DNA of 64,000 nucleotides, taken from assembly GCF_003334785.1 (NCBI RefSeq), contig NZ_QOWV01000005.1. One strand, written 5' to 3'. This DNA comes from Escherichia coli. GTDB taxonomy: Bacteria; Pseudomonadota; Gammaproteobacteria; Enterobacterales; Enterobacteriaceae. Positions 23,050-52,121 of the stretch are shown piece by piece. The notes below the pieces were generated by a model. That model made no database searches. It saw only the letters and a list, made by a program, of their open reading frames with translations, and had not been told where the DNA came from. Position numbers and translations under genes: made by a program. Within the stretch, counting starts at the first letter, position 1, and each line of letters starts with the position of its first letter.

Positions 23050-23170
23050 TAAATAATTCGAGTTGCAGGAAGGCGACAAGAGAGTGAATCCCCAGGAGCT
23101 TACATAAGTAAGTGACTGGGGTGAGCGAACGCAGACGCAGCACATGCAACTTGAAGTATGACGAGTATAA
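23050..23170. repeat. ERIC (enterobacterial repetitive intergenic consensus / IRU) element in the pgk-fbaA intergenic region
   Basis: Core gtgaatccccaggagcttacat + aagtaagtgactggggtgagcg matches the reverse complement of ERIC1R followed by ERIC2 (primer sequences from memory); outer boundaries approximate. Confidence 0.85.
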
Positions 23171-23195: not shown

Positions 23196-24275
23196 ATGTC
23201 TAAGATTTTTGATTTCGTAAAACCTGGCGTAATCACTGGTGATGACGTACAGAAAGTTTTCCAGGTAGCAAAAGAAAACAACTTCGCACTGCCAGCAGTA
23301 AACTGCGTCGGTACTGACTCCATCAACGCCGTACTGGAAACCGCTGCTAAAGTTAAAGCGCCGGTTATCGTTCAGTTCTCCAACGGTGGTGCTTCCTTTA
23401 TCGCTGGTAAAGGCGTGAAATCTGACGTTCCGCAGGGTGCTGCTATCCTGGGCGCGATCTCTGGTGCGCATCACGTTCACCAGATGGCTGAACATTATGG
23501 TGTTCCGGTTATCCTGCACACTGACCACTGCGCGAAGAAACTGCTGCCGTGGATCGACGGTCTGTTGGACGCGGGTGAAAAACACTTCGCAGCTACCGGT
23601 AAGCCGCTGTTCTCTTCTCACATGATCGACCTGTCTGAAGAATCTCTGCAAGAGAACATCGAAATCTGCTCTAAATACCTGGAGCGCATGTCCAAAATCG
23701 GCATGACTCTGGAAATCGAACTGGGTTGCACCGGTGGTGAAGAAGACGGCGTGGACAACAGCCACATGGACGCTTCTGCACTGTACACCCAGCCGGAAGA
23801 CGTTGATTACGCATACACCGAACTGAGCAAAATCAGCCCGCGTTTCACCATCGCAGCGTCCTTCGGTAACGTACACGGTGTTTACAAGCCGGGTAACGTG
23901 GTTCTGACTCCGACCATCCTGCGTGATTCTCAGGAATATGTTTCCAAGAAACACAACCTGCCGCACAACAGCCTGAACTTCGTATTCCACGGTGGTTCCG
24001 GTTCTACTGCTCAGGAAATCAAAGACTCCGTAAGCTACGGCGTAGTAAAAATGAACATCGATACCGATACCCAATGGGCAACCTGGGAAGGCGTTCTGAA
24101 CTACTACAAAGCGAACGAAGCTTATCTGCAGGGTCAGCTGGGTAACCCGAAAGGCGAAGATCAGCCGAACAAGAAATACTACGATCCGCGCGTATGGCTG
24201 CGTGCCGGTCAGACTTCGATGATCGCTCGTCTGGAGAAAGCATTCCAGGAACTGAACGCGATCGACGTTCTGTAA
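23196..24275 (+). CDS. fbaA: Fructose-bisphosphate aldolase class II
   Basis: Translation MSKIFDFVKPGVITGDDVQKVFQVAKENNFALPAVNCVG... recognised as FbaA; start trimmed 28 codons (track ORF runs through the ERIC element). Confidence 0.97.
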   Translation: MSKIFDFVKPGVITGDDVQKVFQVAKENNFALPAVNCVGTDSINAVLETAAKVKAPVIVQFSNGGASFIAGKGVKSDVPQGAAILGAISGAHHVHQMAEHYGVPVILHTDHCAKKLLPWIDGLLDAGEKHFAATGKPLFSSHMIDLSEESLQENIEICSKYLERMSKIGMTLEIELGCTGGEEDGVDNSHMDASALYTQPEDVDYAYTELSKISPRFTIAASFGNVHGVYKPGNVVLTPTILRDSQEYVSKKHNLPHNSLNFVFHGGSGSTAQEIKDSVSYGVVKMNIDTDTQWATWEGVLNYYKANEAYLQGQLGNPKGEDQPNKKYYDPRVWLRAGQTSMIARLEKAFQELNAIDVL

Positions 24276-24300
24276 GATATTCCTTTCTGCTTATCTCAAG

Positions 24301-24323
24301 GCCCGCTCTGCGGGTCTTTTTTT
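24301..24323 (+). terminator. Terminator-like hairpin plus T-run after fbaA (first copy of a duplicated motif)
   Basis: gcccgctctgcgggtcttttttt. Confidence 0.55.
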
Positions 24324-24336
24324 CGCCAAAAGCAAA

Positions 24337-24450
24337 ATTGCCTGATGCGCTACGCTTATCAGGCCTACACGTATCCTGCAATATATTGAATTTGCAGGTT
24401 TTTGTAGGCCGGATAAGGCGTTCACGCCGCATCCGGCATGACAAAGCGCA
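24337..24450. repeat. REP/BIME pair in the fbaA-mscS intergenic region
   Basis: gcctgatgcgctacgcttatcaggcctac and gtaggccggataaggcgttcacgccgcatccggca. Confidence 0.8.
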
Positions 24451-24467
24451 CATTGATATCTGTCTGA

Positions 24468-24492
24468 GCCCCGCTCTGCGGGGATTTTTTCG
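24468..24492 (+). terminator. Second copy of the terminator-like hairpin plus T-run
   Basis: gccccgctctgcggggatttttt, followed like copy 1 by cgccaaaagcaa. Confidence 0.5.
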
Positions 24493-24632
24493 CCAAAAGC
24501 AAGGTGATTCAGATGAGAAATCTGTGATCTATTTGGCAAAATTATGCTTTATTGTTTACCCTTGTCAGACTGCCCGTCATAAGGCGGCGGAGTGTATTTC
24601 TCCATTTTGAGTCAGTTGAAAAGGAATATTGA

Positions 24633-25493
<861 letters not shown>

Positions 25494-51962: not shown

Positions 51963-52121
51963 TTGTAGGCCTGATAAGACGCGCCAGCGTCGCATCAGGC
52001 ATCGGAGCACAACTGCCGGATTCGGCGTGAACGCCTTATCCGATCTACGGGCCTCGTCCCTGTTGTGATAAAGGCATCAAATCCCAGACATGATAAGACG
52101 CGCCAGCGTCGCATCAGGCGA
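51963..52121. repeat. REP/BIME cluster (three REP units) between yqfA and ygfZ
   Basis: gtaggcctgataagacgcgccagcgtcgcatcaggc, ccggattcggcgtgaacgccttatccgatctac and tgataagacgcgccagcgtcgcatcaggcg. Confidence 0.85.

Follow-up and report, generated by a model that had tools for sequence, protein, structure and literature searches.

The spacer between fbaA and mscS was analysed in a stretch of Escherichia coli DNA of 64,000 nt (GCF_003334785.1, contig NZ_QOWV01000005.1), hereafter the window. It carries a bacterial interspersed mosaic element of the BIME-1 type, that is, a doublet of repetitive extragenic palindromic (REP) sequences, with a copy of the fbaA transcription terminator on each side. 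The 357-bp spacer follows the fbaA stop codon (24273-24275) and is identical to positions 3069808-3070164 of strain MG1655, in which fbaA is b2925 (3070165-3071244, minus strand) and for which RefSeq annotates no repeat between the two genes. A window position equals 3094440 minus the MG1655 coordinate. The features of the locus are collected in Table 1.

Table 1. Features of the fbaA-mscS region of the window, with the evidence on which each was placed.
Feature	Position	Strand	Basis
fbaA coding sequence, class II fructose-bisphosphate aldolase	23196..24275	+	Open reading frame; annotation in matching E. coli genomes
Direct-repeat copy 1, fbaA terminator plus tail	24300..24335	+	Sequence, terminator scan, RNA fold
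Term-seq 3' ends, 'primary, fbaA'	24321..24322	+	Adams et al. 2021; 5th-6th U after hairpin 1
BIME-1 (RIP/RIB-type REP doublet), 132 bp	24336..24467	.	Inverted repeats I1 and I2; family-consensus alignment
Y-type REP, inverted orientation, GCCTGATGCGCTACGCTTATCAGGCCTAC, ends CTAC	24340..24368	.	Sequence; conserved across BIME-1 loci
L linker, 35 nt, with IHF-like site	24369..24403	.	Core sequence; Rfam
Z1-type REP, GTAGGCCGGATAAGGCGTTCACGCCGCATCCGGCA	24404..24438	.	Inverted repeat I2; sub-threshold naRNA4; conserved across loci
Right-end motif, 29 nt, TGACAAAGCGCACATTGATATCTGTCTGA	24439..24467	.	Family consensus …CATGAACAAAGCGCACTTTGTCAACAATCTGAG
Direct-repeat copy 2, second terminator plus tail	24468..24502	+	Sequence, terminator scan, RNA fold
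Term-seq 3' end, 'orphan'	24490	+	Adams et al. 2021; last U after hairpin 2
mscS coding sequence, small-conductance mechanosensitive channel	24633..25493	+	Open reading frame; annotation under matches

The two terminator copies run in the same direction and are spaced by 167-168 nt. Copy 1 (36 nt) is composed of GGCCCGCTCTGCGGGTC, T7 and CGCCAAAAGCAA, and can be divided into a hairpin core (24300-24316, or 24298-24318 with an A-U extension), a T-tract (24317-24323) and a tail (24324-24335). Copy 2 (35 nt) is composed of GCCCCGCTCTGCGGGGA, T6 and the same CGCCAAAAGCAA, with the hairpin at 24469-24483, the T-tract at 24485-24490 and the tail at 24491-24502, and the A preceding each copy (24299 and 24467) is also common to both. 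When the copies were aligned, 32 of 36 columns were identical: the 3' 18 nt (TTTTTTCGCCAAAAGCAA) showed no difference, and the hairpin displayed three substitutions plus an indel of one T. One stem pair was altered on both sides (G.T to C-G), and the outermost pair was broken in copy 2. A hairpin followed by a T-run was called as a terminator for both copies by a pattern scan, and folding of the RNA gave -14.1 kcal/mol (9 bp) for copy 1 and -11.6 kcal/mol (6 bp) for copy 2, in which an A sits between the stem and U6. A simple promoter scan of the plus strand of the spacer disclosed no promoter. The 18-mer TTTTTTCGCCAAAAGCAA had only two sites in the window, even with three mismatches permitted, and the terminator motif was found one to three times per genome in 5,426 E. 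coli genomes, counts that are consistent with a motif confined to the fbaA-mscS spacer. Three of the 9,213 places matching it in this collection were in plasmid-labelled records, which may be mislabelled replicons or chromosomal fragments.

BIME-1 elements are single REP doublets with a long L linker that bears a site for integration host factor (IHF), and they lie at the 3' ends of transcription units. The insert at fbaA resembles them (they are also known as RIP or RIB) in the inverted pair of Y and Z1 REPs, in the conserved L linker, which contains an IHF-like site, in its extragenic position after a gene and in its presence or absence among E. coli isolates. It lines up with more than 20 other BIME-1 loci and, when scored through its homologue in Escherichia whittamii, matched a profile of 13 other BIME-1 copies with 154 bits. 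An IHF site in the conserved linker is known from the literature; the one present here, ATTCAATATATTG on the minus strand (24379-24391 of the plus strand), agrees by eye with 12 of the 13 positions of the consensus WATCAANNNNTTR and is predicted from that match. An exact 21-nt core of the linker occurs once in the window. The right-end motif is the reverse-complement partner of the usual left end of the family and is found, in its consensus form, at a median of 18 sites per E. coli genome. As RNA, the element folds into one long hairpin (-51.6 kcal/mol, z = -5.1). It differs from the BIME-1 of the accessible literature in the flanking terminator duplication and in lacking the left-terminal ~21 nt, the right end being complete: the alignment to the family consensus begins at position 9-10, with true similarity from about position 20. 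The linker also matched the Rfam model of the ES036/CssrF small RNA (24361-24403, minus strand; 47.3 bits, gathering score 37.6), on the strand opposite to fbaA transcription; since the linker core is common to other BIME-1 copies, many of these may score as ES036 'small RNA' too. An initial annotation of this DNA, made from its letters alone, had claimed a direct repeat of roughly 35 bp at 24301..24335 and 24468..24502, bracketing about 130 bp that consisted essentially of two REP units. The repeat was found here as one of 36/35 nt starting one position earlier in copy 1, and the length between the copies was likewise right, but the description as two REP units falls short, because the insert is a full BIME-1 module with REPs, linker with an IHF-like site and end motif.

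The full 357-bp spacer was present in 3,720 of the 5,426 complete E. coli genomes, and the remainder, where sampled, was exactly 167 bp shorter. When aligned, this short form had no REP and a single terminator, whose hairpin and T-tract matched those of copy 1, followed by unchanged downstream sequence. A census was carried out by searching a synthetic short-allele junction against the same collection. The junction matched at ≥99% identity in 1,649 genomes and at 95-99% in 48 more; in 3,729 it matched at ~92% only, which corresponds to the long form. The short allele accounts in this way for about 31% of the genomes (~1,650-1,700), and with ~1,700 complete genomes carrying it an assembly artefact can be ruled out. 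A larger allele was also found: in E. coli SW070917 the spacer measures 524 bp, the terminator is present three times and the 167-bp unit twice, without any difference between the units.

In a scan of species-representative genomes with MscS, which returned 80 loci, about 50 other Enterobacteriaceae species (Citrobacter, Klebsiella, Enterobacter, Kluyvera, Kosakonia and others) displayed an fbaA-mscS spacer of 158-194 bp with a single GC-rich hairpin plus T-run. In our reading, the stretch that follows this hairpin has the length of that in E. coli and looks homologous to CGCCAAAAGCAA. Judged from these spacers, the single terminator is the ancestral state for the family. The genus Escherichia itself is mixed. 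The short allele was carried by L004 and L005, two divergent lineages with the label E. coli. E. whittamii carried the long one, with the same left junction, a degraded second hairpin and an intact T-tract and tail, and Escherichia sp. E1V33 had a spacer of 527 bp with two BIME-1 units and three terminators. The left junction was the same, and the right junctions were similar, in E. whittamii and E1V33, and the GGGGA change of copy 2 was common to E. coli and E. whittamii. By coding-flank distances, the short L005 stands beside the long E. whittamii and the short L004 beside E. coli, so that both alleles are present in both deep branches of the genus. Taken together, the shared junctions, the shared GGGGA and the occurrence of both states in both branches point to one old insertion followed by repeated precise loss or recombinational exchange. 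The terminator copies of E1V33 differ among themselves and the units of SW070917 are identical, which shows that the two expansions were independent. It follows from these two-unit alleles that the 35-bp repeats recombine, yielding alleles with 0, 1 or 2 units that differ by one repeat period each.

Published RNA 3' ends of MG1655 obtained by Term-seq (Adams et al. 2021, eLife, supplementary file 1) fall into the U-tract of each copy. For copy 1, an end classed 'primary, fbaA' lies at 3070119 (minus strand; 160,555 reads, LB at an optical density (OD) of 0.4; window 24321) and another end at 3070118 (minus strand; 54,607 reads, LB OD 2.0; window 24322), and for copy 2 an 'orphan' end is listed, in the LB OD 2.0 sheet only, at 3069950 (minus strand; 44,902 reads; window 24490). 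The copy-1 end was thus dominant in growth and that of copy 2 comparable in late growth. By these positions both copies mark real RNA ends, in support of the tandem terminators after fbaA that the initial annotation had suggested. The second terminator stands immediately 5' of an unchanged mscS upstream region. It would most likely catch read-through from the first as well as any transcription leaving the BIME, insulating mscS. With one hairpin and U-tract signal behind the other, downstream of a highly expressed gene, the arrangement resembles other tandem intrinsic terminators; it differs from them in the distance of 168 nt, in the REP doublet between the signals and in being a by-product of a repeat insertion. 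Because the target was duplicated, the 36 nt native to the upstream side of mscS, with the terminator among them, have been kept, and any regulatory consequence of the insertion is probably limited for this reason.

Other BIME-1 copies were collected by a metagenome scan with a 20-nt linker core, which occurred in 120 stretches. Full flanks were available for 102 of these, and grouping by flank yielded 24 clusters. The consensus of the family begins with GAGACTGATGACAAACGCAAAACTGCC and finishes with CATGAACAAAGCGCACTTTGTCAACAATCTGAG, and its ends are imperfect inverted repeats (GAGACTGATGACAAA and the reverse complement of TTTGTCAACAATCTG), identical at ~12 of 15 positions by eye, a figure that has no chance baseline and comes from an element that is palindromic as a whole. 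At many loci a GC-rich hairpin adjoined each end. Eleven of 14 copies with a complete left end had a hairpin of -10.8 kcal/mol or less ending 0-3 nt from the left end, and at about 10 loci a hairpin started 0-4 nt from the right end. The hairpins at one locus were alike and unlike those of other loci. In 8 of 21 loci the alignment of the two flanks scored above the 99th percentile of cross-locus pairs (p<0.01), and after a profile search over wider sequence flanks similar at the same level (p<0.01) were found at 8 of 25 loci, or in 8 of 18 complete elements. The tally of 25 loci scores fbaA through the degraded E. whittamii copy; counting the E. coli version instead raises it to 9 of 25. The bracketed loci were recorded as L086, L090, L095, L096, L103, L108 and L196 (two elements); L103, from a non-coli Escherichia, corresponds to its metE-ysgA region, where a BIME-1 is bracketed by similar hairpins. 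At L100 (glpD-yzgL), L105, L129 and L117 a strong hairpin adjoins the left end only, the second copy having either decayed or never been made. No clean unoccupied allele was found for glpD-yzgL, whose right flank is strain-variable.

Occupied and unoccupied alleles could be paired at four loci besides fbaA-mscS (unoccupied records L204, L206-L210 and L213). At yqjF-yqjG the unoccupied hairpin is AAAACGAGGAGCTTCCTCCTCGTTTT (W3110 and CFT073; occupied in GF4-3 and L196), at ymdF-rutG it is CACCGCCGGTAATCCCGGCGG (95JB1, with a near-identical variant in UPEC132; occupied in K-12-like strains), at srmB-yfiE it is ATGCCGGGTTTAAGCCCGGCAT (504838 and S88; occupied in K-12-like strains), and at mog-satP it is ATCCCCCCGAGCGGGGGGAT (MG1655; occupied in L090 and L188). 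The unoccupied alleles carried exactly one hairpin at all five loci. Occupied minus unoccupied length was 174-177 bp at yqjF-yqjG, ymdF-rutG and srmB-yfiE, and for an element of 154 nt this means a duplication of ~20-23 bp, essentially the hairpin. Over the four loci the duplicated segment was ~20-26 bp and in each case the local hairpin, as against 35-36 bp at fbaA. A two-sided stem change was seen at srmB-yfiE, where one hairpin copy has CCAGG/CCTGG for CCGGG/CCCGG. At these canonical loci the hairpin copy on the side of the left end has no T-tract and the one at the right end retains it, so that a gene reading into the left end would have the BIME-1 in its 3' untranslated region (UTR). For ymdF and srmB, no 3' ends appear in the Term-seq tables of Adams et al. 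(2021).

We believe, with good though not full confidence, that a BIME-1 inserted just 3' of the fbaA terminator in an early ancestor of Escherichia and left a target repeat of 35-36 bp. At each of five loci an unoccupied target is present once and an occupied one is doubled around the element, from which we infer that the duplication was made at insertion, and it looks like a hairpin-length target duplication of 17-36 bp. In detail, an element made of Y REP, L linker, Z1 REP and right-end motif would have entered just downstream of the fbaA intrinsic terminator, leaving on both sides the terminator hairpin, the T-tract and 12 further bases. A target-site duplication that spans a hairpin could result, for example, from cuts at or beyond both feet of the palindrome and subsequent fill-in; these feet, far apart in sequence, would be adjacent in space if the palindrome were extruded. 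The repeats have later mediated the gain and loss of units. As regards the claims made from the letters of the window alone, single-copy alleles without REP do exist, both in about a third of the E. coli genomes and in the ~50 other species, and tie the duplication to the BIME insertion as had been suggested. The duplication was also described as local and recent. It is one case of a wider BIME-1 pattern rather than a purely local event, and its age does not fit that description either, since the junctions are common to E. whittamii and E1V33 and copy 2 has diverged.

Several points weigh against this explanation. No insertion event has been observed, and the duplication mechanism is deduced from end states. 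The fbaA locus is atypical, in that the repeat extends 19 nt beyond the hairpin and the BIME-1 is without its left-terminal ~21 nt. Moreover, the native CGCCAAAAGCAA resembles the usual left end of the element (TGACAAACGCAA), a resemblance by which the left junction may have been shaped by microhomology or by later gene conversion. Polarity within Escherichia is ambiguous, with long and short alleles in both deep branches, and the nearest outgroups (E. albertii, E. fergusonii and Salmonella) were not among the genomes recovered in the species scan. Finally, the copy-2 3' end, an 'orphan' seen in one condition only, could partly reflect RNA processing or stability.

The ambiguity of polarity makes room for a serious competitor, against which we lean only slightly, namely that the BIME-1 allele is the older one within Escherichia and that the short E. 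coli alleles are precise deletions between the 35-bp repeats. Long alleles with the same junctions exist in both deep branches, the short L005 shows only 27 differences in 780 positions from the long-allele E. whittamii, recombination between the repeats is evident from the two independent two-unit alleles, and a crossover within the identical 18-nt segment would yield exactly the short allele that is observed. On the other hand, the flanks of the short alleles listed are 1.4-2.6% diverged from the window instead of being scattered among near-identical genomes, and such divergence fits one old lineage as well as recurrent loss. Besides, the other genera are all single-copy, and a chimeric hairpin, joining the copy-1 5' arm to the copy-2 3' arm, was not seen in the few short alleles read.

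The atypical left junction could be accounted for by two steps, a 17-nt hairpin duplication with a full 154-bp BIME-1 and a later conversion patch that overwrote the left end; we regard this as rather unlikely. The patch would have copied the T-tract and CGCCAAAAGCAA located 3' of copy 2, and the fbaA-proximal hairpin would thereby have regained a U-tract. The 21 nt (TTTTTTTCGCCAAAAGCAAAA) that separate the copy-1 hairpin from the Y REP are close in length to the usual left end (GAGACTGATGACAAACGCAAAA, 22 nt), and on the REP-proximal side 11 of 14 positions are identical. The occupied minus unoccupied difference in E. whittamii, 171 = 154 + 17, is compatible with it, and given that canonical loci lose the gene-proximal T-tract, a highly expressed gene might select for its restoration. 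Yet an extra event is needed, and no allele with a full left end was found at this locus in E. coli, E. whittamii or E1V33. The same sequence is explained by a single insertion with a longer stagger or with a microhomology-guided left junction; either reading fits the fbaA exception.

A different order of events, in which slippage produced a tandem duplication of the terminator segment before any BIME-1 happened to land between the copies, seems very improbable. Short tandem duplications do occur and the final structure would look alike, but no two-copy allele free of BIME was present in the spacers read, the counts in the 5,426 genomes fit no forms other than those of 190 and 357 bp and the rare ones with two units, and the recurrence of the layout at four loci with one-hairpin unoccupied alleles would demand the same coincidence five times. 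As to independent look-alike terminators arisen by chance or convergence, or a copy 2 imported with the BIME from another locus, GC-rich hairpins with T-runs are indeed common after genes, but both ideas were rejected as having practically no chance of being right, since the 18 nt after the hairpin are identical, native to the spacer and single in unoccupied alleles, other genera have a stretch of the same length that to our reading looks homologous, and the motif occurs at no more than three sites per E. coli genome (two in the window), matching 1, 2 or 3 copies.

We then compared the insertion of BIME-1 next to the terminator with known systems. Miniature inverted-repeat transposable elements (MITEs), such as ERIC/IRU and Correia, have terminal inverted repeats, which the imperfect inverted-repeat ends of BIME-1 may recall, and, like the occupied BIME-1 sites, a direct repeat of target sequence that is single when unoccupied. 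The duplications of MITEs are short and fixed in length for each element; here the repeat varies between 17 and 36 bp and coincides with a whole hairpin at four of the five loci. Nor does a repeat that measures ~20-26 bp at those four but 35-36 bp at fbaA agree with the fixed length typical of one transposase, and a review of 2011 describes REPs as being without MITE signatures (PMC3184786). The folding of the REP doublet as one long hairpin is shared with REPIN/RAYT (TnpA-REP) systems. The spread of REP and BIME is attributed to the RAYT nuclease, and REPIN/RAYT are related to the single-strand transposition of IS200/IS605. Transposition of the IS200/IS605 type leaves no flanking direct repeats (PMC3333891), whereas repeats were present in all five occupied/unoccupied pairs. 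An insertion that duplicates a hairpin would not be expected from the 'peel and paste' of that type which is usually invoked for REP/BIME, and that an adjacent hairpin should be duplicated is neither predicted nor mentioned in the published models of BIME amplification. REP dimers 'inserted within palindromes' have been reported by Di Nocera et al. (2013) in Anabaena variabilis, Thermomicrobium roseum and Halothiobacillus neapolitanus (PMC3733652). Those are similar in that palindrome arms bracket a REP doublet; they differ in that the palindrome is a family-wide consensus whose halves flank the REP, while at the BIME-1 loci a complete, locus-specific hairpin stands on each side. The alleles with 0, 1 and 2 units, differing by one repeat period, resemble the products of recombination between short direct repeats, and RecA-independent deletion between such repeats is documented in E. 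coli K-12 (PMC5426353). No description of a local terminator hairpin duplication around BIME-1 was found in the accessible literature, a coverage outside which the primary BIME papers of 1993 and 1997 fall.

Other small elements were noted in and around the spacer and elsewhere in the window. In the spacers inspected from Enterobacteriaceae, a block TGTGATCTATTTGGCAAAA…TTATTGTTTACCCTT located 5' of mscS (24520-24565 in the window) looks conserved by eye; it may be the mscS promoter region, and its TGTGA half-site is CRP-like in look. The spacer is also enlarged in Intestinirhabdus alba (L028, 405 bp) and Entomohabitans teleogrylli (L037, 494 bp), there by other insertions, so that it has been struck by different small repeats in different genera. 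The ends of the additional DNA in I. alba (TAAATAATTCGAGTTGCA…GCACATGCAAC.TGAAGTATGAC) resemble the ERIC/IRU element that lies in the pgk-fbaA spacer of the window (23050-23170, …GTGAATCCCCAGGAGCTTACATAAGTAAGTGACTGGGGTGAGCG…). The latter gave a sub-threshold match to Rfam V_AS5 (38.9 bits, gathering score 96), and an 'orphan' Term-seq 3' end has been published within it (MG1655 3071314, window 23126). Gathering-level Rfam matches elsewhere in the window were to SIB RNA (37475-37625, minus strand), 6S RNA (ssrS; 38274-38457, minus strand) and the REP-derived family naRNA4/CssrE (51968-52045, minus strand).

By itself, the fbaA locus is an ordinary BIME-1 presence/absence polymorphism with modest consequences: the spacer is a small site of variable copy number (0, 1 or 2 units) immediately 5' of mscS, and a very highly expressed glycolytic gene has two serial terminators in most E. 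coli strains and one in about a third. The part worth following is the hairpin-length duplication as a trait of the family. It bears on how REP and BIME spread, a question that has been open for decades and whose mechanism is called unknown or poorly understood in the TnpA-REP papers of 2012 and 2021. We put forward only tentatively, and with somewhat more doubt than belief, that BIME-1 as a class enters at the foot of a terminator hairpin and duplicates the whole hairpin (~17-36 bp), taking together that this is general and that it has not already been published. The duplication would then be defined by structure, for instance if both feet of an extruded palindrome or cruciform were cut and the gaps filled in afterwards. 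If true, BIME-1 would normally join the 3' UTR of the upstream gene, between a hairpin without U-tract and the true terminator, and the spread of REP/BIME would gain a defined target and a defined scar that models of single-strand transposition must accommodate.

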